64,000 nucleotides of DNA from Bacteroidota bacterium (GCA_018266875.1 JAFDZR010000018.1:17916-81915); one strand, 5' to 3'. Positions 10,330-41,536 are shown, counted from the stretch's first letter. Numbers and translations are program-made. Notes: generated from the letters alone by a model not told the origin.

Positions 10330-12045
10330 ATGATAGAGAAGCTTTATATTAAGAACTATCTGATTATAAAAGAAGCTGAAATTGATTTTATAAAAGGGCT
10401 TAATATTCTTACCGGAGAGACAGGAGCCGGAAAATCTATAATCCTTGACGCGCTTTCACTTTTGCTGGGAGAAAGAGCTGATCACTCCAAGATTAAAAAA
10501 GGAGATGATAAGCTGATAGTGGAAGGTCATTTTAATTTTGATAAAAATAAAAACGCAGCAGAGCTTATAAGTGAAATGTTCCCTGATGAAGAATTTTCAG
10601 GGCAGCTGATAGTAAGAAGGGAAATAAATAACAAAGGCATAAACAGAAGCTTCATAAACGATACTCCGGTGTCCATAGCGGACATGAAAAGACTCGGGGA
10701 CGCCGTCATAGACATTCACTCTCAGAATGAGCACCAGTCGCTTCTTAATAAGGAAACCCATATTAAGATACTTGATAATTATGTTTCCGAGGAAAGTATT
10801 TTCAGGGAATATGAAAACAGTTTTAATGGTCTGAAAGGGCTTATAAATGAATTTGATGAATTTGTTATGAAGAAAGAAGATCTGATGAGCAGAAAGAAAT
10901 TTCTTGATCATGAACTTAAAGAGATAAATAATGTGAACATACAGCCGGGAGAGGATGAGGAAATAGAAACCGAACTTGATAAGATGGAAAATGCTGAGGA
11001 AATATCCGCAGCGTTGAGCAGTTCGGTTGACGGACTTTATGAAAATGAAAACAGTGCACTTATTATAATAAACGCTGCAATAAAGGAGCTGAGGAAAATT
11101 TCAGGTTATGATAAAAACATTGAAAAGCTGATTGAGGATCTGGAAAGTTCTTATGTCCTGGTAAAGGAAACATCATCTTCTCTTTCCGGGATGAAGGATG
11201 ATATTAATTTTGATCCGATGAGAATTGAACAGTTAAGAACGAGACTTCTTGCAATTAATCAGTTGAAAAGAAAATACGGTTTGGATACCGAAGGACTTAT
11301 ACTGAAAGCGGAAGAAATTACCAGGGATCTGACATTCGCTGAAAATTTTGATTACGAGATAGAAAAGCTGGATAAGAAGATATCAGAGAATAAAGCGGAC
11401 CTGTTCAGACTTGCGGAAAAAATTTCATCATTAAGGATAATAAAGGCTAAGGATCTTGAAAAAAATATTAACAAACTCTTAAAAGAAGTGGGACTGGAAT
11501 CTGCGGAATTCAAAGCGGACATCAGTCAGGTATCTGCCGGTCAGGAAAATTCATTTTCCGTTAAAAAAGGAAAGGATTACATTCAGCTTACTGCTGACGG
11601 AATTGATGAAATTGAATTTCTTATAAAGACAAACAAGGGAATGGATTTTGCGCCTCTGAGGAAATCAGCATCCGGCGGCGAGATCTCAAGAATAATGCTT
11701 GCAATAAAAACAGTTCTTTCCGAAAATGACAATATAGGAATCCTGGTCTTTGACGAAATTGACGCAGGGATAAGTGGCAGAATAGCGCAGAAAGTCGGCG
11801 TAACTCTGAAAAAACTCGCTTCATCTCATCAGATAATCTGCATTACGCACCTTCCTCAGATAGCCGCGCTCAGCGACAGACATTTCAATGTCAGTAAAAG
11901 TGATGTAAACAATGAAACTTCAGCTTTGATAAGCATTCTTGACGAAAAAGACAAGATAAATGAAGTGGCAAAACTCATGAGCGGCGAAAATATCACAGAA
12001 TCCTCTAAAAAAAGCGCAAAAGAGCTCATTACCGGTTTAAAATAA
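10330..12045 (+). CDS. recN: DNA repair protein RecN
   Basis: 571 aa. SMC-like N-terminal Walker A (LTGETGAGKSI), long coiled coil, C-terminal signature SGGEISR and Walker B ILVFDEIDAG. Confidence 0.93.
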   Translation: MIEKLYIKNYLIIKEAEIDFIKGLNILTGETGAGKSIILDALSLLLGERADHSKIKKGDDKLIVEGHFNFDKNKNAAELISEMFPDEEFSGQLIVRREINNKGINRSFINDTPVSIADMKRLGDAVIDIHSQNEHQSLLNKETHIKILDNYVSEESIFREYENSFNGLKGLINEFDEFVMKKEDLMSRKKFLDHELKEINNVNIQPGEDEEIETELDKMENAEEISAALSSSVDGLYENENSALIIINAAIKELRKISGYDKNIEKLIEDLESSYVLVKETSSSLSGMKDDINFDPMRIEQLRTRLLAINQLKRKYGLDTEGLILKAEEITRDLTFAENFDYEIEKLDKKISENKADLFRLAEKISSLRIIKAKDLEKNINKLLKEVGLESAEFKADISQVSAGQENSFSVKKGKDYIQLTADGIDEIEFLIKTNKGMDFAPLRKSASGGEISRIMLAIKTVLSENDNIGILVFDEIDAGISGRIAQKVGVTLKKLASSHQIICITHLPQIAALSDRHFNVSKSDVNNETSALISILDEKDKINEVAKLMSGENITESSKKSAKELITGLK

Positions 12046-29594: not shown

Positions 29595-30392
29595 ATGAAA
29601 AAATTTACTTCGCTTTTTTTTATTTTTCTTTCGCTGAATTTCATTTCATGTTCTGAACAGGAACAGAAAAAACCCGGAAATTCCGAAAGCATTAATTTTG
29701 ATTTCGGTCCAGTGGATGCTTTTATGAAAAAATATGTGAAGGACGGAAAGGTAAAATACGAAGAGGTATTAAATGACAAAGCTCTGGATCAGTATACTGC
29801 TCAGGTAAAAAATACAGAACCATACAATATTGAAAACGCAAATGAAAGGCTGGCTTTCTGGATCAACGCTTACAATGCGTTTACCATAAAACTTATCACG
29901 GATTACTATCCCGTGAATTCAATACTTGATATCGAACAGAAGACGGGAGCAAATCCCTGGAAAATGAAATTCATTGAAATGGCGGGCGGCAGAAAATTCA
30001 GTCTCGATGAGATTGAAAAGGAAATCATCATTCCCGATTACAAAGATCCGAGAATTCATTACGCACTGGTATGCGCGGCTGAAAGCTGTCCGGTTCTCAT
30101 CTCGGAAGCATACACTCAGGAAAAACTCAATGCGCAGCTTGACAGACAGGCGGAAGTTTTTCTTAATGACAGAAGTAAGAACTATATTGATAAAACAGAA
30201 AACGAACTATATCTCTCTACGATCTTTAAATGGTATGCGCGGGATTTTGTAAAAAAAGATTCTTCCGTTATAAAACACGTTCTGAAATATATTAACCCTG
30301 AGGACAAAGATTTTATTATCAGCAATAAAACCGAAGACATTAACTATTTAGACTATTCCTGGAAACTCAATGATGTTAAAGAAACTAACTGA
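29595..30392 (+). CDS. DUF547-domain lipoprotein
   Basis: 265 aa. Lipoprotein-like signal (FIFLSLNFISCSEQ). RLAFWINAYNAFTIKLI and IHYALVCAAESCP are the segments I associate with DUF547. Confidence 0.75.
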   Translation: MKKFTSLFFIFLSLNFISCSEQEQKKPGNSESINFDFGPVDAFMKKYVKDGKVKYEEVLNDKALDQYTAQVKNTEPYNIENANERLAFWINAYNAFTIKLITDYYPVNSILDIEQKTGANPWKMKFIEMAGGRKFSLDEIEKEIIIPDYKDPRIHYALVCAAESCPVLISEAYTQEKLNAQLDRQAEVFLNDRSKNYIDKTENELYLSTIFKWYARDFVKKDSSVIKHVLKYINPEDKDFIISNKTEDINYLDYSWKLNDVKETN

Positions 30393-31908
30393 ACCGGGGG
30401 TTTTAAAAATTCTGCTCGGAATAATAATCGCTCTGAAATTCATGATCTCATTCAACACGGGTCTGTTTGAAGATGAAGCGATATACTGGAACTGGTCTCA
30501 GAATCCCGATCCCTCATACTCTTTTACAACTCTGTCCGCTCTCAATCTGTTTACTGCTTTCCCCGGATATGTAAATGAATTTACTGTGAGACTTCCCGCG
30601 CTTCTGACGAATTTTGTAATACTGTTCTTTTTATTAAGAACCGGTAAATTTCTCGGATTTTCTGAAAGAAAAATTCTTCTGACAGCAGTTCTTATATTCA
30701 GTATTCCCTTTGTCACCATATATTCTTCATTCATATCTCCTGACTCCATGATACTGATGTTTACATTGTCATCAGTTTTTTTCAGCATAAAGGTAATTAA
30801 AAAAGGAAATACGGAAGACTGGATCCTGTGCGGCGTCTCATTCGGACTGCTCATACTGAGCAAATACACAGGTGTTGTCTTTGCTGCTGCTTTCGCTGTG
30901 TTTGTGATTTATTTTAGAAAAGATCTGAAGGGATTCAGTGTGTTTAAACTTTCCGCTTTTCTTATATCGGTTTTCATATTGGTCTCTCCGCTGCTTTACT
31001 GGAATCTAATCAACGAACCCGTATGGCTGAATTATTATTTTAAAACAGGAGCTGATAAAATTGATTCCGGATATGCAGAAAGTATTTACAGATTTATTCT
31101 GTCTCAGACTGCAATACTCCTTCCTGTTACTTTTATTCTGATAATTTATATAACGTTTAACCGCTTAAGAAAAAAAGAAAAAACACCGGAAGAAAAATTT
31201 CTTCTCTTCAGCGGAATATTTATTTTGTTCTGCTTTGCTCTGCTATCTCTTTCAGGGAAACTGAAGGGAAACTGGCCTTTCATGGCTTACATTCCACTGG
31301 CGTTTCTTTATATTTACACAAAAAAAACCGTAACTGTCAGAATCCTTTTTGCGATTACTTTTGCAGTGAATATTTTTCTTCTTTCACTTCTTAATATGAG
31401 CTCGGACAGCATCAGCAGCATTGCCGACAATAAATTCGGAAATTATATTAACAGCACTTATCACGATTACTGGCCGGGATATGCAGGCAATTCCGCCAAT
31501 GATAAAAACTGGGAAGAAAGGATCCTGAAAATGAAAAACTGGCAGAGCAGTATTCTTAAATTAAATGATGAGATAATCACCTCGGATCTCAGATATGATT
31601 TTCTTGCAAGTGATAATTTTATTCTCAGCCCTCTTCTTAAATTTTACATGAAAAAGGATAACGTATATCTGCTGGGCGACCTGCGTTTCAGATATATAAA
31701 TTCAGCAGAAGTTAACAGTGAGCTGACAGGAAAAGATGCCATACTTATTTCTTATAATGATTCTGATACCGGACCCGTTGAAAACAGATTTGAAGAGATT
31801 AAGGAAGTAAAAAAAATCCGGTTCAGAATTTCAGAAGATCTGTATCAGGAATTTACAATTAACCAGTGCAGAAATTTCAAACCCGGGATCGTATCCGCTG
31901 ATGAGTGA
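30370..31908 (+). CDS. GT-C fold membrane glycosyltransferase (family 39 / ArnT-PMT-like)
   Basis: 512 aa. About 10 TM helices in the N-terminal 330 aa with an early acidic loop (FEDEAIYWNW), then a soluble C-terminal domain. It overlaps the DUF547 gene by 23 bp and the GT2 gene by 8 bp. Confidence 0.7.
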   Translation: MMLKKLTEPGVLKILLGIIIALKFMISFNTGLFEDEAIYWNWSQNPDPSYSFTTLSALNLFTAFPGYVNEFTVRLPALLTNFVILFFLLRTGKFLGFSERKILLTAVLIFSIPFVTIYSSFISPDSMILMFTLSSVFFSIKVIKKGNTEDWILCGVSFGLLILSKYTGVVFAAAFAVFVIYFRKDLKGFSVFKLSAFLISVFILVSPLLYWNLINEPVWLNYYFKTGADKIDSGYAESIYRFILSQTAILLPVTFILIIYITFNRLRKKEKTPEEKFLLFSGIFILFCFALLSLSGKLKGNWPFMAYIPLAFLYIYTKKTVTVRILFAITFAVNIFLLSLLNMSSDSISSIADNKFGNYINSTYHDYWPGYAGNSANDKNWEERILKMKNWQSSILKLNDEIITSDLRYDFLASDNFILSPLLKFYMKKDNVYLLGDLRFRYINSAEVNSELTGKDAILISYNDSDTGPVENRFEEIKEVKKIRFRISEDLYQEFTINQCRNFKPGIVSADE

Positions 31909-32599
31909 CATATATGTTCTGATTCCCGCCGTTAACGAGGAAAACTCAATTGCCAGAGTAATTGAAGACATTCCCGCTGATCTTGTAAAAGAAGTAGTGG
32001 TTGTTGACAACGGTTCCGAGGATAATACAATTAATGCCGCTGAAAAAGCGGGAGCTGCGGTTCTGTCGGAATCAGTCCGCGGATACGGCGCTGCATGCCT
32101 GAAGGGTCTTTCATACATTTTCGGAAAATGCAGTGATGATGACGTAATAGTTTTTCTTGACGGGGATTATTCGGATCATCCTGAAGAGATGGGAAAAATC
32201 GCCGCTCCTGTTATCGGTGAGAATTATGATATGGTCATCGGCTCAAGGATACTCGGCAAGAAACTGGGAATGACGGAAGAAGATTCTCTTTTACCGCAGG
32301 CGGAATTCGGTAACTGGCTTTCAACTGCATTGATTAAATTATTCTGGGGTTATGAATTCACTGACCTCGGTCCGTTCAGAGCAGTGAAAGTAAGTTCGCT
32401 GAAAAAAATGAAAATGAAAGATATGAATTACGGCTGGACTGTCGAGATGCAGATCAAAGCAGCGAAATTTAAAATGAACTGCACAGAAGTTCCGGTCAGC
32501 TACCGCAAACGTATTGGCGTTTCAAAAGTAACCGGGACTGTCAGCGGCAGCGTAAAGGCAGGTGTCAAAATTCTTTATACTATTTTTAAATCACTATGA
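31901..32599 (+). CDS. Family-2 glycosyltransferase (polyprenyl-phosphate sugar synthase-like)
   Basis: 232 aa. LIPAVNEENSI, VVVVDNGSEDNT and FLDGDYSD (DxD) motifs. The size and motifs fit small soluble GT2 enzymes, including the rSAM/selenodomain-associated 'transferase 2' type. Confidence 0.8.
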   Translation: MSDIYVLIPAVNEENSIARVIEDIPADLVKEVVVVDNGSEDNTINAAEKAGAAVLSESVRGYGAACLKGLSYIFGKCSDDDVIVFLDGDYSDHPEEMGKIAAPVIGENYDMVIGSRILGKKLGMTEEDSLLPQAEFGNWLSTALIKLFWGYEFTDLGPFRAVKVSSLKKMKMKDMNYGWTVEMQIKAAKFKMNCTEVPVSYRKRIGVSKVTGTVSGSVKAGVKILYTIFKSL

Positions 32600-32716
32600 A
32601 AGCATTACTATGAAAATTTATTTTCACCTCAATGTCTCTACGACTCGAAGAAATTTTTAACAGAATTTTTTTTCTGATCAAAGATCTTTTTGTTTAATAT
32701 TAATTACAAAATATTA

Positions 32717-32779
32717 AATTCGTAATTCATAATTCATAATTCGTAATTCATAATTCGTAATTCGTAATTCGTAATTGTA
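32717..32779. repeat. Heptamer microsatellite (AATTCRT) x9
   Basis: aattcgt aattcat aattcat aattcgt aattcat aattcgt aattcgt aattcgt aattgta, read directly from 32717. Confidence 0.9.
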
Positions 32780-32783
32780 ATAT

Positions 32784-32839
32784 GTCATTCCCGCGTGTTC
32801 TCTATTTTGTCATTCCCGCGTGCTCCCGGCGGGAATCTA
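32784..32839. repeat. GGGAAT-hairpin (REP-like) element
   Basis: GTCATTCCCGCGTG occurs twice (32784-32797 and 32809-32822). The second copy pairs with CCGGCGGGAATCTA (32826-32839), giving stem ATTCCCGC/GCGGGAAT. The same arms recur, inverted, at 35801-35815 and 35950-35964. Confidence 0.8.
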
Positions 32840-33175
32840 ATCAGACTCTGTCTTTCAATTTCAAATGCTAAATCTTACAATTCCCGCTGTTGTTGGTTTT
32901 TTCAAAAAGTTTGCCTGAGGTTCAGTTGAATATTTTATCACATCTTGTGCAACCTTTTTGTTCACCAACAACGGAAGATATTGTAGAATTATTTATTGAC
33001 GATTGAAGCAGCAGACATAACAGTCAGTGATACAGGTGACCAATAAGTTTACCTGTGTAAAGCAGAAATAATGAGGTTCTACAGTGTAAACTTTTCGGAA
33101 TACCGACACCGGCTAAAAATAACATTTTCAGGATCGGGATATATGAAACAGGTGCCGGTGGATCTTTTCTTGAAT

Positions 33176-33429
33176 CCCGGGAATAACTTACGGAAATCCG
33201 TAACAAACTCAAGGAATTCTTTGACTTTCCTGCGGAAATCCCTGACAAACTTACGGAAACCCGGGAATAACTTACTGAGACCCGGGACAAATTCTCGGAA
33301 TCCCGGGAATAACTTACGGAATCCCGGGACAGATTTACGGAAACCCGGGAGTAACTCACTGATCTGCGTAACTTACTTAAGGATTTCCCTTACAAACCTA
33401 CGGATTTCCTTGAATGATCTACAGAAATC
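33176..33429. repeat. Tandem array of about 12 degenerate 20-22-bp units (consensus CCCGGGAATAACTTACGGAAW)
   Basis: The units read contiguously from 33176: cccgggaataacttacggaaat, ccgtaacaaactcaaggaattc, tttgactttcctgcggaaat, ccctgacaaacttacggaaa, cccgggaataacttactgaga, cccgggacaaattctcggaat, cccgggaataacttacggaat, cccgggacagatttacggaaa, cccgggagtaactcactgatc, tgcgtaacttacttaaggattt, cccttacaaacctacggattt, ccttgaatgatctacagaaatc. There are no unique spacers between units. Confidence 0.9.
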
Positions 33430-33724
33430 ATTTTTAATAAATATATTACTCTGTAGTTAAAATATCAGAGAATTTAAACATTTTTCTAAAAATGCTTTGG
33501 AATTTTTTTACCGACGAATGAAGCAACAGTCAACACTATTTGAGATGTCGGTGACCAAAAGTTTGTGAGAAATAAATTTGTTAATTTAAGATTTTACAGA
33601 ACAAACTATTGGAACACCAACATCAGCGCAAATTATTGCTGTCAACAAACTTAAATCTCTGTTCCGTGTCTTGACTGTTAAATACATAGTTCATACCTTT
33701 TAGAAAATTAATAAAGGAGAAATT

Positions 33725-35740
33725 ATGAAACAGCTAATCTTTACAACTTATATATTACTGATTGGAATAATAACATTTAATACCGGTCTGTCTTCACCTA
33801 TCAATCCATACATAAACTCCGTTTCACCGCCGATGAATTCAAACATTGTATTAAAATCTTCTGACATTGTTATCACATTCATGCAGGATATGAACGGATC
33901 GCTGATGACGGATGAAAACATAAAACTTTTCGGATATCAGACCGGACTTATGACTGCTTCGCTTGATTATAATTCAGTGACAAAAACTCTGACAATAAAT
34001 CCAGTTAATAATTTTAAGAACGGCGAGAAGATCAGTCTCACACTTACTTCGGGACTAAAGACAATTGCGAATGAAAGTATCACTCCATTTGTTTATTCAT
34101 TCAGGACAAAGGCTCTCGGTGGGACTGGTTTTTTTACAAAGTCTTCCGGCATTATCAACAATAATCAATTTACATATATTTTATCCGGTGATGTTGACAA
34201 TGACGGAGATATCGATCTTCTTTTTAATGACAAAATATTCAAAAATAACGGAAACGCTCTATTTACATATTATTCATCACTAAGTATTTCAGGATATCCG
34301 ATAATGGCAGATTTCGATTCTGATGGGGACCTTGATATACAAGTTGCATTGAATAACAATACATATTTGTTTCAAAACAACGGTGTTGGAGATTTTACTC
34401 AAACCACTTCTTATGCTGGATTAAATGGCTCTATTGGTGATTTTGACGGAAACGGATATTTTGATATGGCTTATTTTTCACAACAAACAGGATTAGATAT
34501 TTTAGTAGTAAAAAATTCACAGGGTATTTCTTCAATTGATACTGTTTATCATGTAAGCACTAATTGTTTCAATCCTCAATACAATTATTATGATAGAATT
34601 ATTATTAATGATATGAATAATGATGGTTCTTTAGATTTTATTGGAATTAATGGAACTGGATTTGGTGATAGTATTGAGGGATATTCATTGTGCAGAAGTT
34701 TTCATAAATTTACAAATGATGGTTCAGGTAAGTTTTTTTCTCAATTTTTTTATTCACAACAACTAAATAATTATTCTCCGCCAATATTATGGATTGGAGA
34801 CACTAAAACTTTTGATTATGATAATGACGGATTTAATGATATTATATCACCAGGGTTGAATCTTAAAAATGACGGCTCAGGATTATTTTTAGATCAGGGA
34901 TATTTTATTCCGTTTCATAATTCTGCAGATTTTGATTTTAACGGAGATGGATTTATTGATCTAATAACAATTTCCAGCTTCTCTTCAACTGTTATCGTTA
35001 ATTCAAATAATGGTAATGGAACATTTAGCCAAAGTTATCTCAGCAATAATTATTCTTTTCGTTCATCCGCATCAGGAGATTTTGATAATGACGGGGATAT
35101 TGATATTGCTATAAAAGAATATTATACTAATGAAGTCGCCATCTTACTCAACGGCGACTCACCATTACCCGTCGAGCTTTCTTCATTTTCTTCAAGTGTA
35201 AATTCAAACTCAGTAAAATTAAACTGGTCCACTTCAAGCGAGCAAAACAACTCCGGCTTTGAGATACAGAGAACGTCTTTAAAAAATGAATCTCCGTATG
35301 CATGGACGAAGATCGGATTCGCTGAAGGTCAGGGAAATTCAAACTCTTCTGCAAATTACAATTTCGAAGATAAAAATTTATTGTCAGGAAAATATAAATA
35401 CCGTCTAAAGCAGATCGACTTCAACGGTAATTTCAAATATTATGATCTTTCGAATGAGGTAGTGATCGGCATTCCGACTTCGACAGAGTTTATGCAAAAT
35501 CATCCAAATCCTTTTAATCCGGTTACAAATATTTCTTACAGACTTTCGGAGAATGGCTTTGTGACTTTAAAAGTGTTTGATAATTCGGGCAGAGAATTGA
35601 AAACGCTTGTGAATGAATTTAAAGAGGCAGGATATTATACAATTGAATTCAACGGCAGTAATCTTGCGAGCGGGATTTATTTTTATAAGCTGACCGCGGG
35701 GGATTTTGTTCAGACAAAAAAGCTGTCGCTGGTTAAGTAA
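33725..35740 (+). CDS. Secreted FG-GAP/VCBS-repeat protein with N-terminal Ig-like domain and T9SS C-terminal sorting domain
   Basis: 671 aa. Signal peptide, repeated calcium-binding DxDxDGDxD loops (DVDNDGDIDL, DFDSDGDLDI, DMNNDGSLDF, DYDNDGFNDI, DFDNDGDIDI). C-terminal NHPNPFNPVTNISYRL...GIYFYKLTAGDFVQTKKLSLVK. Confidence 0.85.
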   Translation: MKQLIFTTYILLIGIITFNTGLSSPINPYINSVSPPMNSNIVLKSSDIVITFMQDMNGSLMTDENIKLFGYQTGLMTASLDYNSVTKTLTINPVNNFKNGEKISLTLTSGLKTIANESITPFVYSFRTKALGGTGFFTKSSGIINNNQFTYILSGDVDNDGDIDLLFNDKIFKNNGNALFTYYSSLSISGYPIMADFDSDGDLDIQVALNNNTYLFQNNGVGDFTQTTSYAGLNGSIGDFDGNGYFDMAYFSQQTGLDILVVKNSQGISSIDTVYHVSTNCFNPQYNYYDRIIINDMNNDGSLDFIGINGTGFGDSIEGYSLCRSFHKFTNDGSGKFFSQFFYSQQLNNYSPPILWIGDTKTFDYDNDGFNDIISPGLNLKNDGSGLFLDQGYFIPFHNSADFDFNGDGFIDLITISSFSSTVIVNSNNGNGTFSQSYLSNNYSFRSSASGDFDNDGDIDIAIKEYYTNEVAILLNGDSPLPVELSSFSSSVNSNSVKLNWSTSSEQNNSGFEIQRTSLKNESPYAWTKIGFAEGQGNSNSSANYNFEDKNLLSGKYKYRLKQIDFNGNFKYYDLSNEVVIGIPTSTEFMQNHPNPFNPVTNISYRLSENGFVTLKVFDNSGRELKTLVNEFKEAGYYTIEFNGSNLASGIYFYKLTAGDFVQTKKLSLVK

Positions 35741-35998
35741 ATTTCAAATTACGAATTTCAAATTTCAAATAAGAAATTTTTGGATGTGTTTCTTACTGAA
35801 TAGATTCCCGCCGGGAACAGACAGTCCGAAAACAATGGGAATGCCTCAAAGTCTCCAAGACTCAAAGAAAAACAATTTAAAACAAACCACTTTGAGCCTT
35901 CGAGTCTTAGAGGCAGGTATTAACATATTGTTTTCGGAAAGTCTGGAACATGCGGGAATGACATTATAAAAGCGGTTAACCTTTGAGCCTTCGAGGCA
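35740..35998. repeat. Composite repeat: 7-bp-periodic A/T tract, split GGGAAT hairpin and nested MITE-like hairpin (copy 2)
   Basis: AATTTCA/AATTACG heptamers at 35740-35780. TAGATTCCCGCCGGG (35801-35815) and CATGCGGGAATGAC (35950-35963) are the two REP arms, separated by an inserted hairpin. That hairpin has termini CAGACAGTCCGAAAACAAT (35818-35836) / ATTGTTTTCGGAAAGTCTG (35927-35945) and inner arms GCCTCAAAGTCTCCAAGACTCAAAG / CTTTGAGCCTTCGAGTCTTAGAGGC. An extra half-copy CTTTGAGCCTTCGAGGC lies at 35981-35997. Confidence 0.75.
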
Positions 35999-36069
35999 AA
36001 CCCGAAAAAATTTAAATATAGAATTTAAATACCTCTAATCCTAACTTTGTAAAACAAATCTTACACTGT

Positions 36070-37389
36070 TTGAATTTTCTGAAAGATAAATACAATGTTC
36101 TCTGTTTGCTTATTTACCTTCTGTCTCTGTTTACCTTTTACATTCCGGATATTTCACCGCAGGATAAAGTTATTTTGTATATTTTTATATTCTCGGTTTG
36201 TTTTTTCCTCTGCTCGGTTTTGTATTTCAGGAACAGGCGCAAAACGGATATAGGTTTCAGGGAAGTCCTGATCATAGCTGCAGCGCTCAGAGCGGCGCTT
36301 TTATTCAGCGCTCCCGTAACATCTGATGACTATTACAGATATTTATGGGACGGGAAAGTTCAGAGCGAAGGAATTGATCCTTTTTTATTTTCCCCGCTTG
36401 AACTAACATCGCTTCACGATAATGTTATCTATCCCGGCGTAACCTTTCCGGAAGTCAAAACAATTTATCCGCCGGTTTCACAGATCATATTTTATCTTGC
36501 TTATCAGATCTCACCCGGAAATACTTTCGGATTGAAACTGCTGTATCTGCTTTTTGATATCGGCACTATGATATTCCTGTCGGCTTCCGTTTTAAAACTA
36601 AAATTAAATCCCGCTGGTATTTTACTGTATGCATTCTCGCCGCTTGTAATTCTTGAATTTTTTCTGAACGCTCACGTTGACGTCATTCTGATTTTCTTCT
36701 TATCCGGAAGTTTATATTTTACACTTAAAAGGAACATTCAGCCTGCATTGCTGTTCCTCGGGTTCTCAGTGCTCAGCAAGACTTATTCCCTGATATTCCT
36801 GCCTGTGATTATTTTGTTTTTTGTCCGCGATAAGTTATCTTTTACAAAAGCGGTAAAGAACATTATCTGTTTTATTCTTCCGTTTACGGTTGTGATTTTT
36901 TACAGGGAAGGGATAATGAATCTTTTTCAGGTGATGGGAAATTATATGAAACACTGGTATAATAACAACCTGATATATAAATCTGTTCTTTATGTAACGG
37001 AAATGTTCGGAGTTAACGATCACGCTTTGACGAGAGAGATTTTAATAATATTATTCGCTGTTTCTTTTTTGATAATTCTTTTTTCCCGGACGGATCTGAT
37101 TAAGACAGTTACATTTATAACGATATTTTATTTTCTGTTCTCTCATACTGTTCATCCCTGGTATCTTACAGTATTGGCAATGCTGCTTCCGCTTTACTTC
37201 AGTCATGCGTCTTTTTACTGGACGGGAATCATCGGATTAACCAATCTGACGGTATTTTTCTATCTGAAATACGGGATCTGGGATGACGCGCTGCCTGTTC
37301 TGATAATTGAATACGCCGGCGTGATAATATTTTTACTTTACGACTTTAGAAAAATTAAATTAAATAAACCGGAAATTATAACACAATGA
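36070..37389 (+). CDS. Polytopic GT-C-like membrane glycosyl/mannosyltransferase (DUF2029 / GT87-like)
   Basis: 439 aa with a TTG start and about 12 TM helices. The first periplasmic loop motif TSDDYYRYLWDGKVQSEGIDPF is what I associate with DUF2029-type mannosyltransferases. Confidence 0.65.
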   Translation: MNFLKDKYNVLCLLIYLLSLFTFYIPDISPQDKVILYIFIFSVCFFLCSVLYFRNRRKTDIGFREVLIIAAALRAALLFSAPVTSDDYYRYLWDGKVQSEGIDPFLFSPLELTSLHDNVIYPGVTFPEVKTIYPPVSQIIFYLAYQISPGNTFGLKLLYLLFDIGTMIFLSASVLKLKLNPAGILLYAFSPLVILEFFLNAHVDVILIFFLSGSLYFTLKRNIQPALLFLGFSVLSKTYSLIFLPVIILFFVRDKLSFTKAVKNIICFILPFTVVIFYREGIMNLFQVMGNYMKHWYNNNLIYKSVLYVTEMFGVNDHALTREILIILFAVSFLIILFSRTDLIKTVTFITIFYFLFSHTVHPWYLTVLAMLLPLYFSHASFYWTGIIGLTNLTVFFYLKYGIWDDALPVLIIEYAGVIIFLLYDFRKIKLNKPEIITQ

Positions 37390-37970
37390 AAGAAGCAATA
37401 ATAGTATTTGCAAAAAATCCTGTAAAAGGAAATGTAAAAACCAGACTGGCTGCTGATATAGGAATTGATAAAGCGCATGATATATATGTAAAGCTGCTTA
37501 AACATACGCATGATATCACAAAAGATCTTGAGTGCGGTAAATTTCTTTATCTTACTGAAAGAAAAGATGAACAACTCTTTGACGGAAATTACAGGCAGGA
37601 ACTGCAAAACGGTCCCGATCTCGGAGAAAGAATGAAAAGAGCATTTGACGAGGTTTTCAAAAAAGGATTCAGAAAAATCCTTATAATCGGTACCGACTGT
37701 CCCGGTCTGAATCCGGAAATCATTAATACTGCTTTTGAAAAACTCAATGAGAATGATTTTGTTCTGGGACCTACTGACGACGGAGGATATTATCTTCTGG
37801 GAATGAAAAAAACTTCCGCATATTTATTTGAGGATATTGTATGGAGTACGGAAGAAGTGCTTTCTGAGACAGTCAAGCGGATAGAAAAAAACAAGAAATC
37901 CCATTTTCTTCTTAATAAGCTTAAAGATATTGATGATCTTGAGGATCTTCAAAAGACAGGTTTCGTATAA
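37386..37970 (+). CDS. DUF2064-family transferase (rSAM/selenodomain-associated 'transferase 1' type)
   Basis: 194 aa. AIIVFAKNPVKGNVKTRLA, LIIGTDCPGL and GPTDDGGYYLLG motifs characteristic of DUF2064 nucleotidyl/glycosyl-transferase-like proteins. The start overlaps the upstream stop (ATGA at 37386-37389). Confidence 0.75.
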   Translation: MKEAIIVFAKNPVKGNVKTRLAADIGIDKAHDIYVKLLKHTHDITKDLECGKFLYLTERKDEQLFDGNYRQELQNGPDLGERMKRAFDEVFKKGFRKILIIGTDCPGLNPEIINTAFEKLNENDFVLGPTDDGGYYLLGMKKTSAYLFEDIVWSTEEVLSETVKRIEKNKKSHFLLNKLKDIDDLEDLQKTGFV

Positions 37971-37987
37971 AATTATTTGGAATTTAT

Positions 37988-40900
37988 TTAAAAGAAAGCC
38001 TTGATCTCGGCGCGGCCTGTATGTATTACTTTTCTGCCGCCTTCGGATCTACCGTCGTAATTTATTGTCGCCTGTAAATTTTTACTGATACTGTAATCAA
38101 ATAACAGTCTCCATAAAATACTGCTGCCGACAGGTCTGCCGCCGGTAAGCTCATAAGGAAAAGCAGCGTCGGGAAAGTTCAGCTTTACATTATCCCTTTC
38201 CACTTCAGCTCTCACCCTGCCCGATAATGCAAAAGAATAAATGATCCTGAAAAGAATCTGATTGATGTCCGCCTGTATCGGAATAAAGGGATAACTGTCA
38301 ACAGCTTTTGAAATGTTCAGCTGAAAACCGCTTTCGATCTCCGGGATCGGTCTGTAGGAAAAATCACCTGACAATCCCTCGGACTTGATGTTTCTGTTCC
38401 GTACTGAATTTGAAGGAGCGTCGTTTCTGTCAACTTTTGTGGAGTATTCAAATAATGTTGTGATATCCGTTGTCAGTCCGAGTTTCAGCTTTACTGACTT
38501 CTGAATACCGAAGAATCTTTCATTTCCACCTATATACTGATTGAACGTTCTCTGCTGAATGTATCTTAGCTTCAGGGAATATGAGGAATTGAATTCAAAG
38601 AAATTAATATCCTGCTGAAAAAGATTTGTACCGAAGAGAGTATTCGAGTCGTTCTGAAAAGTGCTGAACTTAAGAAAGTATATGTCGTCTGTATTCGGAT
38701 TCTTGCTTTTTTCCTCCACACGCACATAACTTTCGGCGGTCGTGTTTCTCAAAATATCCGATAAAAAATCATTTCCTGTTACATTAAAAAATCTCGCCGG
38801 CTTAAGATTGAATCTTGCGGAAGTGTTTAGTCCTGTGACAGGGAATAGTTCGCTGGTCGGCTGATTTATCCGTATATAATTTCCGTCATTGAAATTTGTA
38901 AGCTGAAATTCGTTCTCATCCTTTAATCCGTTTGCATTGAGATCTCCGAGATAAATATAATTTCCCTCGCCGACCCTTACTTCAACAAAAATCCTTTCCA
39001 CTTTTGCCTGACGTTCGCTTGTCGTATTGTAATAAAGATCAGTAAGCAGCGAACCGTTCAGCGGGTCAAGTCTCGTCTGCCAGTTAACAAGAAGCGAGTT
39101 ATTGTTTATGTTTGTCTCTGTGGTAAATTCATCCGCAAAAACTTTTTTCCGGAGTGTAAGTTCGAGAAAAGTGGAAACCCACTGAACGCCGTTATATCTG
39201 AGACCGTAAGTCTGAGTAAAAGTTTCCGATTCCTTTTTCAATACTCCTTCCAGCGGTAGGTTATCTTTTCTGAAACCTATCTCTGAATAGAAGTTGAGAT
39301 CATACAGATTGTTTATCAGGAATTTCGGCTTGACTTCGTAAAATGAAAAACTTCCCGACTGCAGACTGTCTCCGGTCAGTCCGGGCACTTTATTCCGCCT
39401 GTTCTCCTGCGCAAAATCAAGTTTGAATTCAAGACTCGGATTGTCAAAGGAAAATCCGCCGAGATATTTTTTATAACCCGCGCTTGCCAGCTGTCTCAGC
39501 CAAATGCTGTTTACATTAATGTATGTATTGTCGGATTTAATGTATTCAATATTGTAAAGCAGTTCGGGAATGTTCTTCGTATCATCTTTCATAACAAACT
39601 CTGCAGCCGTTCTTAACGAATTGAATCCGTCTCCTCTGAGAAGCTGTCCGAATGATGCGTTGAATTTAATAAAATCTTTTGGAATAATATTAAGAGAAGC
39701 TTCCCTGAGATCCTCTGTCAGCTTGTTGGAATCCTGTATGTCGTAATCCCTGTAAAATTCAACCGGGTTGTATCTTTCCAGCGGTACAAAGATCTTGTTT
39801 ACAACCTTGCTCTTTAGTTTCAGTTCGACAGAGTTGAGCTTTGTTCCGAGAAAATTGAAATCCCTTTTGTTTAATCCGATTGTTCCGAATAATGCCACGC
39901 CTGTATTATTGTTGTCACCTATGGCGGATAATTTATTTGCGTCGAGAACTGAAAATGCAGATTCAAGTTCCAGTGTAAATTCTTTCAGAGGAGAAGATTC
40001 ATATTTAAGATTAATGTCACCGATCTGATATGAATTAGGCAGCGGAATGAAAATTATCGTGTCGTAATTTCCCTGACTAAGTCCGTTGAAATCATATTCA
40101 AGCGAACTTTTCTGCAGATAATTTCCCTTTCCCTGACCGACAAAAGAAAATGTCACCTGATAAAGAGCGTTTGCATCATTTGGGAGATATTTATAATATG
40201 TAATCTTCTGAGAATTTATAAGCGTATCTGATTTTATGTACAATCCTTTTCCCAGTCCGGTGGCGGTGTCAACCCCGACAAATTCAACTCCTGACTTTAT
40301 GGCTTTGAACCTGTCGTCTCCCGCCTGCGAAAGTATCTGTCTGTCCTGATCGGTAAGAGTAAAATCTATGCTTTTGTTTTCGTTATCATTTTCACTTACG
40401 TAGGAAAATCCTATGTTCAGTTTGTTTTTAAATAAACTCAGATTGTTCGCTCCAGTCAGTAAAGTCCGTGAATATTTTCTGTCGGTATATTCAAAGTCCA
40501 CTATAATTCTCGAAGCAACAGAAATGATCCTTTTGTTTGTAAATGTAATTGTCCCGATCCCGTAATCAATAACATAATCCGCCTGTTCGCCGCGAACCAT
40601 TTCTATTCCGTCAAGAAAGACTTTTTCAGATCCGGAAAGAACCAGAATATTAATCTCATTGTCTTTCCCTATCAGATAATAAGGACCCTGAATTCCGTCC
40701 CTGCCGTTGAATGAATTTGAATTGAACTTACCTCTCTGAACTGCGCCGCTGAGAAGAATATTTCCAATGCCGTTCCCGTATACCGCGTATCCCTTTGCGC
40801 CCTGAATTTTCCTTTTGAAGTTTGTGAACTGAGTATTCTGAAAATCAATATTTATATCTCCTATCGTTCCGGTAAAATCCTGACCTTTGAGTTCGATGAA

Positions 40901-41536
40901 AACATTGTCAAGCTCCTGAAGCTTCTGCGTATTGCCTTCGGGTTGTATCGGAGTTGTCTCGTCAGTAAGAGCAGCATTTATCTCAATGTCGCTTGTGAGC
41001 TTACCGTTCAGCTGAAGCCTGAATCCGGAATTCAGCGAGAGATCACGGTTTGAACCGACAGTAACTCCCCTGAAAAGACTTCCTGATTTCTGAAGGTCGG
41101 TTCCTTCAAACAGACTTCCGATAAAATCCTTGTTCTGTGTCGCTATCTGAATTGAATCTCCTGTTAAAGTGTCTCTTTCCGTTATAATATCGAAATTAGA
41201 ATATTCTTCCTTGATGTCATACGGAAAGACATCATAGTCCGTGCGGAGACTGTAGATCTGAAAAGTATCAAGTTCATATTTAGAAAAAAGGTCTTTGCTT
41301 AATGTAATAACTCCCTGTCTGTTATCAATTTTGTAATCGCTGAAAGGCGTAAGGATTTTATTCTGTAAAGTCAGGATCTCCGAAAACGGTATTATGAATT
41401 TTTCAGGAAGCGTAATGAGTGTGTCTCTGTGACCGATCTGGGAAACGAGGGTTCTGTAATTCGGATTCTGCTGTGAATAAAGCGAAGCGGCTGACAGCAG
41501 CAGAATAAAAAGAATAATGAATTTTTTGATTACCAT
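37988..41536 (-). CDS. Very large secreted protein, probable outer-membrane beta-barrel (1182 aa), hypothetical
   Basis: Signal peptide (MVIKKFIILFILLLSAASLYSQQ). Composition is rich in alternating beta-strand patterns, Y/F/N/G/S/T. The C-terminal residue is Phe (...GRAEIKAFF), as in OMP beta-signals. The segment GSEKVFLDGIEMVRGEQADYVIDYGIGTITFTNKRII...IIVDFEY reminds me of SprA N-terminal repeats, but this is unverified. Confidence 0.75.
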   Translation of the reverse strand: MVIKKFIILFILLLSAASLYSQQNPNYRTLVSQIGHRDTLITLPEKFIIPFSEILTLQNKILTPFSDYKIDNRQGVITLSKDLFSKYELDTFQIYSLRTDYDVFPYDIKEEYSNFDIITERDTLTGDSIQIATQNKDFIGSLFEGTDLQKSGSLFRGVTVGSNRDLSLNSGFRLQLNGKLTSDIEINAALTDETTPIQPEGNTQKLQELDNVFIELKGQDFTGTIGDINIDFQNTQFTNFKRKIQGAKGYAVYGNGIGNILLSGAVQRGKFNSNSFNGRDGIQGPYYLIGKDNEINILVLSGSEKVFLDGIEMVRGEQADYVIDYGIGTITFTNKRIISVASRIIVDFEYTDRKYSRTLLTGANNLSLFKNKLNIGFSYVSENDNENKSIDFTLTDQDRQILSQAGDDRFKAIKSGVEFVGVDTATGLGKGLYIKSDTLINSQKITYYKYLPNDANALYQVTFSFVGQGKGNYLQKSSLEYDFNGLSQGNYDTIIFIPLPNSYQIGDINLKYESSPLKEFTLELESAFSVLDANKLSAIGDNNNTGVALFGTIGLNKRDFNFLGTKLNSVELKLKSKVVNKIFVPLERYNPVEFYRDYDIQDSNKLTEDLREASLNIIPKDFIKFNASFGQLLRGDGFNSLRTAAEFVMKDDTKNIPELLYNIEYIKSDNTYINVNSIWLRQLASAGYKKYLGGFSFDNPSLEFKLDFAQENRRNKVPGLTGDSLQSGSFSFYEVKPKFLINNLYDLNFYSEIGFRKDNLPLEGVLKKESETFTQTYGLRYNGVQWVSTFLELTLRKKVFADEFTTETNINNNSLLVNWQTRLDPLNGSLLTDLYYNTTSERQAKVERIFVEVRVGEGNYIYLGDLNANGLKDENEFQLTNFNDGNYIRINQPTSELFPVTGLNTSARFNLKPARFFNVTGNDFLSDILRNTTAESYVRVEEKSKNPNTDDIYFLKFSTFQNDSNTLFGTNLFQQDINFFEFNSSYSLKLRYIQQRTFNQYIGGNERFFGIQKSVKLKLGLTTDITTLFEYSTKVDRNDAPSNSVRNRNIKSEGLSGDFSYRPIPEIESGFQLNISKAVDSYPFIPIQADINQILFRIIYSFALSGRVRAEVERDNVKLNFPDAAFPYELTGGRPVGSSILWRLLFDYSISKNLQATINYDGRSEGGRKVIHTGRAEIKAFF

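Follow-up and report, generated by a model that had tools for sequence, protein, structure and literature searches.

A lineage-specific, repeat-rich segment carrying a T9SS cargo gene in an uncultured Ignavibacteria genome, best read as recombination at an intergenic hot spot

Several described systems bear comparison with the segment treated here. In Neisseria, NIMEs are built from dRS3 repeats, with the pattern ATTCCC(N8)GGGAAT, and from RS units, gathered into arrays of 200-2700 bp; roughly 700 dRS3 are present, and pilC1 is an example of a variable surface gene flanked by such arrays (PMC3898611). According to the account in PMC3898611, minimal mobile elements (Saunders and Snyder 2002) are a concept for strains that exchange DNA by natural transformation, and homologous recombination of the flanking genes is taken to be the route of exchange and incorporation. 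REP and REPIN elements are short imperfect intergenic palindromes, sometimes arranged as inverted pairs, with RAYT transposases as their enzymes (PMC3116915, PMC3337134). For the segment itself, the best reading is that it arose by recombination at an intergenic hot spot; NIME arrays and minimal mobile elements offer a comparison, in which the likeness to NIMEs serves as a working analogy and does not imply membership.

The segment spans positions 32600-36069 of the window, by which we mean the whole 64,000-nt stretch that was analyzed, and comes from an uncultured Ignavibacteria genome. It comprises one T9SS cargo gene with repeat-rich DNA on either side, 1.1 kb on the left and 0.33 kb on the right (Table 1). 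A preliminary description had reported a lone cargo gene flanked by non-coding repeat DNA, and this picture was borne out, with every feature it listed recovered within a few bases. The cargo gene, encoding 671 aa, is the sole long open reading frame (ORF) of the segment. Two further ORFs lie over a 21-bp tandem array (33071-33460 on the + strand and 33024-33359 on the - strand) and gave no Pfam match; ORFs over this array, in which at least three frames are open, are no evidence of a gene. ORF and Pfam searches of the segment also agree with the earlier statement that it holds no transposase or integrase. Both flanks do have repeat families in common, namely 7-bp tracts, GTCATTCCCGC/GCGGGAAT hairpins and CTTNGAGN arms. 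The description of the segment as compositionally distinct holds only weakly: its G+C content of 0.338 is low, at the 6th percentile of 3.47-kb windows, but mildly so, and the flanks stand at 0.346, above the mean of intergenic DNA (0.289). The cargo gene itself, at 0.333, lies at the 8th percentile among genes and is typical of its paralogs (0.31-0.33).

Table 1 Features of the segment and of its two neighbors, in positions of the window
Feature	Position	Strand	Basis
GT2 glycosyltransferase gene, conserved left neighbor	31901..32599	+	Pfam Glycos_transf_2, E 4e-19
Lone, degenerate arm of the NCTCNAAG x3 (CTTNGAGN) family, sequence CCTCAATGTCTCTACGACTCGAAG	32627..32650	+	20/24 identical to 35844-35867
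Heptamer tract (AATTCRT) x9.4, in probable ancestral spacer	32717..32781		TRF score 102 (unit AATTCGT)
Half hairpin (GTCATTCCCGCGTGTTC), then full hairpin GTCATTCCCGC-GTGCTCCCG-GCGGGAATC; REP-like; in probable ancestral spacer	32784..32837		
Copy A of the ~95-nt two-helix palindrome; end of probable ancestral spacer	32873..32980		nhmmer 96.5 bits
Copy B of the 95-nt palindrome (degenerate)	33030..33115		DNA fold z -3.2
12-unit 21-bp tandem array (consensus CGGAAACCCGGGAATAACTTA), center of modular repeat 33118-33634	33172..33423		
Copy C of the 95-nt palindrome	33548..33632		nhmmer 17.3 bits; DNA fold z -4.4
Conserved promoter, ribosome-binding site and start block, assigned to a deleted partner gene	33659..33724	+	82% to own C36:22374-22438; 84% to G005:C61:1919-1985
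T9SS cargo gene: Big_5 Ig-like domain, FG-GAP repeats, Por_Secre_tail	33725..35740	+	Pfam (Big_5, FG-GAP_3, Por_Secre_tail)
252-bp block in common with an unrelated T9SS cargo locus	35665..35916	+	91.7% identity to C1:55488-55739
Heptamer tract (AAATTTC), begins at cargo stop codon	35739..35779		TRF, 35739-35770 (x4.6)
Three-tier nested palindrome	35796..35971		DNA fold -35.4 kcal/mol, z -6.8
Lone CTTTGAGCCTTCGAGGCA arm	35981..35998		
Probable ancestral spacer directly 5' of membrane gene; right edge of insertion	36018..36069	+	By-eye likeness
Polytopic membrane glycosyltransferase-like gene (MptA_B family), conserved right neighbor	36070..37389	+	PF26314, as annotated for this gene in public assemblies

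Inspection of the same junction in relatives indicates that the segment is a derived, variable, lineage-specific insertion that separates two genes within a conserved operon for sugar transfer. Gene order is conserved on either side, the GT2 protein has 84% amino acid identity with its ortholog in G005, and the MptA-like membrane gene has orthologs in eight relatives. The gap between the two genes is geneless in four congeners, measuring 71, 71, 253 (G005) and 631 bp (G004), the latter two repeat-rich, and shrinks to about 10-22 bp in three other genera. That is to say, all seven readable relatives (G001, G002, G004, G005, G006, G019 and L038) lack a gene here, and another lineage, L037, carries DUF2283, DUF4258 and HTH genes instead, in keeping with a hot spot. 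On the right, a stretch containing CTAACTTTGTAAAACAAAT directly 5' of the membrane gene recurs in G005, with a related one in G004, as judged by eye. The comparison across relatives that the preliminary description had proposed thus reveals a variable locus, with the segment absent in four congeners and three other genera. The two outcomes under which that description had said its reading would fall were ubiquitous repeats and conservation in place; the repeats occupy a minority of spacers (heptamer tracts, 69 of 2376), and the segment is unconserved in relatives.

From the available sequences we judge the arrangement to be real rather than an assembly error. It is identical in two more public assemblies (ENA, JGI), one of which may be the source of this genome, so that the pair is not certainly independent of it, and contigs from at least nine samples agree base for base with the left flank over their reach. 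The same-species contigs that were found are all of one allele, with no empty site among them. Conserved proteins are 79-86% identical to those of the closest available relatives, which are different species.

The left part of the segment, comprising tract, hairpin and palindrome (about 32717-32975), is collinear with the geneless spacers of G004 and G005 and is therefore probably older than the cargo gene. An ATTCGTA tract lies at this junction in both congeners, the half and full hairpins of 32784-32837 (DNA fold -8 kcal/mol) are collinear with both spacers, and G004 has a 95-nt palindrome at the place of copy A. These observations bear on the earlier proposal of a cassette moved as a unit by its repeats, which found no support: the left repeats stand at the same junction in two congeners without the gene, and the same families lie beside unrelated genes. 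The target-site duplication that the proposal called for was looked for and is lacking, since the longest direct word between 32590-32730 and 35960-36075 is 8 nt, equalled in 52% of shuffles. The refined junctions have only the 7-mer TAGAATT in common, for which chance in AT-rich DNA is estimated at about 1 in 4. The searches turned up no second copy of the unit made of the gene with its flanking repeats. The tests of the whole segment as a MITE- or transposon-like cassette were negative; its inverted hairpins are members of a dispersed family, of which the left one appears to predate the gene.

A non-autonomous version, in which the inverted GGGAAT-type hairpins serve as terminal repeats for a RAYT-like Y1 or IS110-family enzyme that is encoded at another place in the genome and mobilizes the gene along with them, is improbable for the same reasons of junction, duplication, copy and differing paralog flanks. 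It draws on two inverted matches of 24-26 nt between the flanks that resemble terminal inverted repeats (32775-32800 with 35946-35971, 85%; 32821-32844 with 35796-35819, 92%) and on the three intact Y1_Tnp proteins and one IS110-family protein encoded in the genome. In Neisseria, recombination between dRS3 repeats, whose ATTCCC...GGGAAT ends are the same, has tentatively been ascribed to a phage integrase (PMC3898611). However, the hairpins next to the intact Y1 genes are different ones, particular to each gene (GTCCCNTAGGGAC / CAATCCCNNNGGGATTG, GCAGGCTTCAGCCTGC and GGAATTNAATTCC-type, not GTCATTCCCGC), and the hairpin family of the segment has only 9-17 copies in the genome. No cognate RAYT or transposase for the segment's hairpins was found among the genome's Y1 and IS110 genes, which have other flanking hairpins, and no link of its repeats to a filamentous phage or Piv-like integrase was found.

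A census of the dispersed repeats, run on a crude longest-ORF gene map, vindicated the earlier term REP/MITE-type repeats to the extent that they are genuine multi-copy palindromes in the genome; as in REP elements, they are short, imperfect, over-represented and intergenic. GTCATTCCCGC occurs 16 times against 0.5 expected, and spacers hold 13 of the 14 hairpin loci. The hairpin is present in 26 of 41 genomes of the taxonomic family, in which a reversed control pattern scored 0. Within the segment, GTCATTCCCGC starts at 32784 and 32809 and GCGGGAATC lies at 32829-32837, and the right flank holds the reverse orientation, with GATTCCCGCC at 35803 and GCGGGAATGAC at 35953-35963. These copies take the form ATTCCCGC-N9-GCGGGAAT; the N8 form is found in relatives. 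The genome resembles REP/REPIN systems in its dispersed intergenic palindromes, some of them in inverted pairs, and its hairpin-flanked, RAYT-like Y1 genes, and differs from them in low copy numbers and in that the segment's hairpin families are not those flanking the Y1 genes.

The CTTNGAGN arms form a second family, with its word GAGCCTTCGAG present in 13 genome copies against 0.5 expected. The preliminary description had placed a CCTCAAAG-type motif in both flanks. The right-hand instance (35844-35867, CCTCAAAGTCTCCAAGACTCAAAG) is indeed the arm of a hairpin, with its partner arm at 35890-35915, whereas the left-hand one is lone and degenerate and has no partner arm nearby. On the right, the arms form part of the nested palindrome, in which GGGAAT-type arms (35803-35815 / 35950-35963) enclose an element of ~130 nt that has outer arms at 35818-35836 / 35927-35945 and inner CTTNGAGN arms at 35843-35867 / 35890-35915. 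Relatives of the inner element are found at C1, C20, C25 and C32. All of these families adjoin many unrelated genes and are dispersed across the genome and the taxonomic family.

Heptamer tracts are features of gene 3' ends. The genome has 107 heptamer arrays, at a median of 24 nt from a stop codon, and the tracts follow 6.9% of genes bearing a C-terminal sorting domain (CTD) as against 1.5% of other genes, making them about fivefold commoner there.

Two more repeat families of the left flank had escaped the preliminary description, the ~95-nt palindrome (three copies) and the 12-unit 21-bp array. The palindrome was counted at about 39 loci genome-wide, all of them outside confidently called genes, and its 26 pairs are 83% paired, 16 of them with compensatory changes, a value that 0 of 500 shuffles reached. 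As a structured RNA it was rejected: no Rfam family matched, the palindromic DNA giving only sub-threshold matches to microRNA models, and mismatches of G:U type (38) do not exceed those of A:C type (47), and hence nothing points to a strand-specific RNA. Copy B together with 32989-33043 is a direct repeat of 33504-33632. The array module has siblings at C14:10850-11512 (about 65%) and G005:C89:1245-1605 (66%), where the C14 sibling has about 20 units of a sequence unlike that of the 12-unit array. In BOX elements of Streptococcus pneumoniae, boxA-(boxB)n-boxC, a 45-bp central unit is repeated in tandem in variable number. The module is similar in setting a tandem central unit of variable number (12 here, ~20 at C14) between conserved end modules, and dissimilar in its 2-3 copies per genome, its 21-bp unit and its end modules, which include the 95-nt palindrome.

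Such features could also be regulatory DNA for the cargo gene, kept to control or insulate a gene within an operon, where the array, through its phased CCCGGG sites, would be the binding target of a regulator, the palindromes would serve as operators or as leader structures that are transcribed, and the nested hairpin would be a terminator or mRNA stabilizer. The 21-bp period, equal to two helical turns, the compensatory changes that keep the 95-nt palindrome paired, the high stability of the nested hairpin (z -6.8) and the closeness of heptamer tracts to stop codons are all in keeping with this view. Yet the C14 sibling array is followed by a convergent gene and no promoter, the palindrome lacks the G:U excess and Rfam match noted above, folding of the 70 nt 3' of heptamer tracts is not stronger than in controls (p 0.47), and a consensus terminator scan of the flanks gave no match. 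We regard a regulatory role of the flanks as unlikely, to about the same degree as the enzyme-moved cassette.

The cargo protein itself is nothing unusual. Like other type A T9SS cargo, it joins passenger domains to a C-terminal sorting domain, here Por_Secre_tail (PF18962) at residues 594-667, scoring 34.4 bits against a cut-off of 27, and its N-terminus, MKQLIFTTYILLIGIITFNTGLSSP, resembles a signal peptide by eye. The gene is probably expressed, yielding a beta-propeller binding protein that is either secreted or sits at the cell surface. The genome has about 188 type A cargo genes, and the C-terminal module conserved among paralogs covers ~190 aa, as compared with the 75-aa Pfam domain.

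Comparison with paralogs at C66 (76% aa) and C36 (61%) reveals a mosaic. DNA similarity to C66 is confined to 33795-35769, its right limit falling inside the 3' heptamer tract, and the in-genome paralogs have neither flank in common beyond 29 nt past the stop codon. Upstream, the blocks matching the promoter region at C36 and G005:C61 each sit directly 5' of a partner gene of 500-544 aa. Read from these alignments, the cargo copy derives from a two-gene unit of partner and cargo in which the coding body of the partner is gone, such that the partner's promoter and ribosome-binding site would now drive the cargo gene; the partner's first codons are probably kept in it as well. Downstream, the 252-bp block consists of the last 76 nt of the coding sequence and 176 nt 3' of it, and its C1 match is the downstream end of an 806-aa peptidase-like cargo gene. 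This block is a probable gene-conversion tract. It is the only such pair among 184 CTD genes, which speaks against a general process in the genome.

The paralogs also bear on whether the gene was inserted or lost. Were the cargo gene ancestral at the junction and lost independently in relatives, the repeats would be deletion scars, and the repeat-rich spacers of G004 and G005 could be remnants; the membrane protein is about equally distant (61-64%) from all four congeners, which makes a single loss in their common ancestor conceivable. We consider this course of events very improbable, somewhat more so than either the cassette or the regulatory reading. The short gaps in three other genera mark adjacency as the older state, no trace of cargo or partner coding sequence caught the eye when the congener spacers were read through, and congeners have no ortholog of the inserted copy closer than 76%, whereas C66 has a 94% ortholog in G005, a species whose conserved proteins stand at 79-86%.

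We therefore favor, with reasonable confidence, a recombination-built insertion at an intergenic hot spot and no transposable cassette, a mechanism suggested by the mosaicism of the sequence. The ancestral operon ran Fer4, DUF547, PMT_2, GT2, MptA-like, DUF2064, with GT2 and the membrane gene adjacent. At the level of the genus, the short spacer between the two gained dispersed repeats ordinary for the lineage, namely a heptamer tract, a GGGAAT-type hairpin and the 95-nt palindrome. In the lineage of this genome, a further ~3 kb (about 32976-36017) was added, made up of three pieces: the modular repeat with the 21-bp array between two 95-nt palindrome copies, one member of the multi-copy T9SS cargo family, and the 3' heptamer tract and nested palindrome of that gene. 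Arrival and remodeling of the cargo gene would have proceeded by homologous or microhomology-driven recombination and gene conversion, with dispersed repeats and conserved cargo-gene ends as substrates and with DNA drawn either from another part of this genome or from that of a relative; no locus came to light whose junctions would match those of a donor. The limit of C66 similarity within the heptamer tract and the stop-spanning block in common with C1 both suggest that repeats and gene ends may act as such substrates. If the gene arrived by recombination, the repeats would be passive portable homology and normal gene-end furniture, and not terminal repeats.

Set against minimal mobile elements, this junction resembles them in having differing whole-gene inserts between two conserved genes, without mobility genes: the cargo gene here, the DUF2283, DUF4258 and HTH genes in L037, and nothing in seven others. 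Here, in contrast, the comparison runs across species and genera, and no within-species polymorphism was seen. With NIMEs the locus has in common intergenic arrays of 0.2-2.7 kb made of several short repeat families, a small palindrome with ATTCCC...GGGAAT ends, and a position flanking lineage-variable surface-protein genes, with recombination proposed to be promoted in both. The family-wide short-loop form, CATTCCCGCGAAGGCGGGAAT, fits dRS3, as do related hairpin copies elsewhere with an 8-nt loop; the segment's own copies depart from N8 with a 9-nt loop and 8-nt stems. The phylum here is Ignavibacteria, with tens of copies per genome and not hundreds as for dRS3, and RS units are unrelated, their place being taken by heptamer tracts, the 95-nt palindrome and CTTNGAGN arms.

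One could go further and posit a NIME-like system of Ignavibacteria, in which heptamer tracts, ATTCCC...GGGAAT hairpins and nested palindromes, together with the conserved 3' end encoding the T9SS sorting domain, would form portable homology that shuffles, converts and relocates genes of secreted surface proteins. We hold this extension to be speculative and doubtful, if a little less so than the alternatives weighed above. If true, it would be a means for uncultured bacteria to vary their surface repertoire. It fits the block in common with C1, the close cross-species ortholog of the C66 paralog and the enrichment of heptamer tracts after cargo genes.

The window corresponds to C9:17916-81915 in a genome of 3.5 Mb (76 contigs, 37% G+C), and its segment at 32600-36069 interrupts a conserved glycosylation operon between a GT2 gene and an MptA_B-family membrane gene. 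As the preliminary description had it, the segment carries a single T9SS cargo gene. This is its sole long ORF, and the Big_5 Ig-like domain, FG-GAP repeats and Por_Secre_tail sorting domain of the 671-aa product identify a T9SS cargo protein. The compositional distinctness claimed for the segment is weak; its G+C falls in the 6th percentile among equal-sized windows, and that of the cargo gene matches its paralogs. Adjoining the operon in all congeners is a gene for a 1182-aa protein without a Pfam match (37988-41536, minus strand), which is 79% identical in the congener G005.

Genes and repeat features of the segment and its surroundings (window positions)
Feature	Position	Strand or orientation	Remarks
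Fer4, DUF547, PMT_2 and GT2 genes	5' of segment	same strand as cargo gene	
Cargo gene, sole long ORF of 32600-36069	33725-35740	+	671 aa
MptA_B-family membrane gene (polytopic) and DUF2064 gene	3' of segment	same strand as cargo gene	
NCTCNAAG / CTTNGAGN arm	32627-32650		lone and degenerate
NCTCNAAG / CTTNGAGN arms	35844-35867 with 35890-35915		forming a hairpin
Heptamer tracts	32717-32781 and 35739-35770		
GTCATTCCCGC / GCGGGAAT hairpin arms	both flanks	mutually opposite	
~95-nt palindrome	32873-32980, about 33030-33115, 33548-33632		three copies, left flank
21-bp tandem array	33172-33423		12 mixed units

Comparison with related genomes reveals a derived insertion at a recurrent junction. Four congeneric species keep the gene order with gaps of 71, 71, 253 and 631 bp between the GT2 and membrane genes and no ORF within them. 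In three other genera the two genes stand 10-22 bp apart, which indicates that their adjacency is the older state and that the cargo gene is derived here. A cargo gene that was ancestral at the junction and lost repeatedly is highly improbable. The nearest genomes compared belong to other species, and genome and metagenome scans gave nothing closer to the membrane protein than 64%. Within the species, exact-protein look-ups yielded only the same allele, and none with an empty site was seen. Nor is the arrangement an assembly artefact. The identical locus occurs in one ENA and one JGI assembly, although either may be the source of the present genome and their independence is uncertain. In at least eight further runs, Logan contigs agree with the left flank at every base up to their ends, which fall within the heptamer tract, the hairpin or the array; dispersed repeats break short-read assemblies at predictable places. 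At the same junction in a more distant lineage (L037), 1.5 kb is occupied by DUF2283, DUF4258-like and HTH_3 genes. The junction is a recurrent landing place, and as an intergenic hot spot within a conserved glycosylation operon it makes a clean example. The small genes in L037 (4466-6000, JALYRX010000021.1) resemble toxin-antitoxin modules.

Inspection of the flanks confirms that the heptamer tracts, the hairpin arms and the NCTCNAAG / CTTNGAGN arms noted earlier are all real, and the core words of the hairpin and the NCTCNAAG-type arms occur genome-wide at 25-30 times their composition-predicted frequency. Two further families, the ~95-nt palindrome and the 21-bp tandem array, are present in the left flank. 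Palindromes nested in three tiers make up the right flank, with a ~130-nt hairpin element inside the loop of a GGGAAT-type hairpin; the folding energy of the structure in single-stranded DNA is -35.4 kcal/mol (z -6.8). An Rfam scan of 30000-38000 (E<=1) gave only sub-threshold matches of microRNA models to this nested palindrome, which were set aside as noise.

The preliminary description likened the pattern to a cargo cassette moved or stabilised by REP/MITE-type repeats. A gene moved by its repeats and a gene that landed in an already repeat-filled spacer look alike in raw sequence, and here the two can be told apart. The spacers of the congeners G004 (631 bp) and G005 (253 bp) contain the same repeat families, collinear with 32717-32975 and in a common order of ATTCGTA tract, half hairpin and full hairpin, with a 95-nt palindrome in G004. 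To the right, 36018-36069 matches the promoter-proximal spacer of both congeners, in a comparison made by eye only. The added DNA therefore spans about 32976-36017, and the left-hand repeats predate the gene. A target-site duplication, which the preliminary description suggested looking for at the segment ends, was not found there above the level of chance. The cassette interpretation is partly supported, in that the insertion is derived and the palindromes are dispersed, but the repeats do not form cassette ends and those on the left are older than the gene.

The repeats are dispersed and widespread, and some of them predate the insertion. Of 41 genomes of the family, 26 contain the hairpin CATTCCCGC-N(4-12)-GCGGGAAT, in up to 107 copies, against none for a reversed control pattern. 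Heptamer tracts number 107 in the genome, and period 7 forms a sharp peak in the TRF output with 110 rows, where periods 6 and 8 have 11 and 29. These tracts are gene 3'-end features: in a census resting on a crude gene map, their median distance to a stop codon is 24 nt, 53% lie within 30 nt, and only 3 of the 69 spacers bearing them are divergent. Such tracts come after 6.9% of cargo genes but 1.5% of the remaining genes (odds ratio 4.8, p 3e-5). The impression that the same repeats stand on both sides therefore comes about largely because the tandem GT2 and cargo genes each precede the usual gene-end furniture of the lineage. For annotation of Ignavibacteria MAGs, several dispersed repeat families are now documented, including the 95-nt palindrome and the stop-codon-hugging heptamer tracts. 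Tract and hairpin do not form a standard terminator unit, as folding in the 70 nt that follow a tract is no stronger than in controls. A mainly regulatory role for the flanking repeats is unlikely.

The genome has three Y1 (RAYT-like) genes that are intact and a single one for an IS110-family protein. In being palindromic and dispersed, the repeats of the segment are like those of REP/REPIN-RAYT systems (PMC3116915, PMC3337134), but no cognate RAYT, the feature that defines such systems, was found for the segment's hairpins: each Y1 gene is bracketed by its own, different hairpins. That the segment is a true trans-mobilised cassette is unlikely. The Y1_Tnp (RAYT/IS200-like) genes, at C18:19600-20870, C10:90540-91720 and C1:181170-182520, each have tandem hairpins; the one on C18, for example, is preceded by three GTCCCNTAGGGAC units and followed by three CAATCCCTGCGGGATTG units. 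These sets of gene and hairpins look like REPtron-type arrangements.

The 95-nt palindrome is found at ~39 loci in the genome (nhmmer), often clustered and often at contig ends, and at none of these loci does it lie inside a confidently called gene. Since several contigs end in such palindromes, they probably cause assembly breaks. Among 24 copies, a two-helix structure of 26 pairs is 83% paired, with compensatory changes at 16 pairs, a value reached by 0 of 500 shuffles. Although pairing is kept, G:U-type mismatches (38) are not in excess over A:C-type mismatches (47). We therefore read the element as a DNA palindrome and reject a structured, strand-specific RNA. Clusters of several copies per spacer occur at C32:15400-20800, C33:61000-65500 and C7:66000-88000, within long non-coding stretches. 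The sole IS110-family transposase gene (C2:111-1506) stands at a contig start, with half a palindrome (left arm only) 352 nt downstream.

The array belongs to a module (33118-33634) composed of a short leader, the 21-bp array, a tail and the third copy of the 95-nt palindrome. A sibling, ~65% identical, lies at C14:10850-11512 (array at 10880-11310), and another relative is present in G005 (G005:C89:1245-1605, locus L207). Across copies the leader and tail are conserved while the units vary in sequence and number; the C14 sibling has about 20 units that differ in sequence from those of the segment, and near-identical GGAGTTCAGTAACTTTCTCAC units number about 11 there. The whole C14 spacer is built like the segment's left flank, with heptamer tracts, a GGGAAT hairpin, a palindrome remnant, an array and a palindrome. 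BOX elements are similarly modular in build. A 129-aa ORF over the array was rejected as a real gene, given that at least three frames are open here and in G005 and that it has no Pfam match. At the array start, differences between window and C14 in the plus frame fall mostly at synonymous positions, over only 12 codons.

The inserted gene itself is a patchwork, each piece having its closest relative at a different locus. Full-length members of the cargo family number three here and between three and six in each congener, and a partner gene normally comes before the cargo gene. The other local copies, on C66 (76% amino acid identity) and C36 (61%), are each directly preceded, across a gap of 31-47 bp, by a partner gene of 536-544 aa, for which Pfam gives only a weak, sub-threshold fn3_3 match (loci C66:8351-12011 and C36:22452-26032). 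No partner gene stands beside the window's cargo gene, and tblastn found no pseudogene remnant of it in the left flank. Immediately ahead of the start codon, a stretch of 66 nt (33659-33724) shares 82-84% identity with the sequence that directly precedes the partner gene on C36 and on G005:C61. DNA similarity to the C66 cargo gene does not start until 33795, which is 70 nt inside the ORF. Taken together, these two observations indicate a derived copy that lost the body of the partner and in which the partner's promoter, and probably its start, have been taken over by the cargo gene; the N-terminal MKQLI of the cargo resembles the partner's MKNLI. A separate, independent partner loss is seen in the related genome G002 (contig C7; L020 3505-3680), where all that is left of the partner is a stub of ~15 codons closed by a stop.

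On the 3' side, the similarity to C66 ends at 35769, within the heptamer tract. Positions 35665-35916, comprising the last 76 nt of the CDS and 176 nt of downstream repeats, are 92% identical to C1:55488-55739. That stretch covers the end of a peptidase-like T9SS cargo gene of 806 aa, together with the sequence that follows it (locus C1:53143-55739), and the protein is otherwise unrelated. Only one pair among 184 cargo genes shares such a 3' block, which shows one conversion or crossover event and no general process. The C66 paralog (C66:8354-10369) and G005:C165:97-2049 encode 94% identical proteins while conserved neighbours reach 79-86%, a hint from sequence identity that this cargo gene may have been exchanged recently between species.

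We consider it probable that the segment is a recombination-built insertion at a hot spot, with the repeats as substrates. The patchwork would have been made by homologous or microhomology-driven recombination together with gene conversion, acting on dispersed repeats and on the conserved ends of cargo genes. The locus is a clean example of mosaic evolution within a T9SS cargo family, and if recombination of this kind generalises, it would offer these bacteria a route to diversify secreted surface proteins. In Neisseria, surface-protein genes found in some strains only are flanked by NIMEs, arrays in which dRS3 palindromes, ATTCCC(N8)GGGAAT, are combined with other short repeats; at minimal mobile elements, the site between two conserved genes is filled by differing inserts that bring no mobility genes (PMC3898611). 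These are the closest described analogues, in manner of working and not in membership. The segment is a fresh instance, in an uncultured phylum, of REP/NIME-like repeat mosaics and of hot-spot insertion of a surface-protein gene. The short-loop hairpin of related Ignavibacteria fits the dRS3 pattern literally; G023, from another genus of the family, has 107 CATTCCCGC-N4-GCGGGAAT hairpins, mostly CATTCCCGCGMAGGCGGGAAT, which fit it as well, so that in its form this REP family is common to different phyla.
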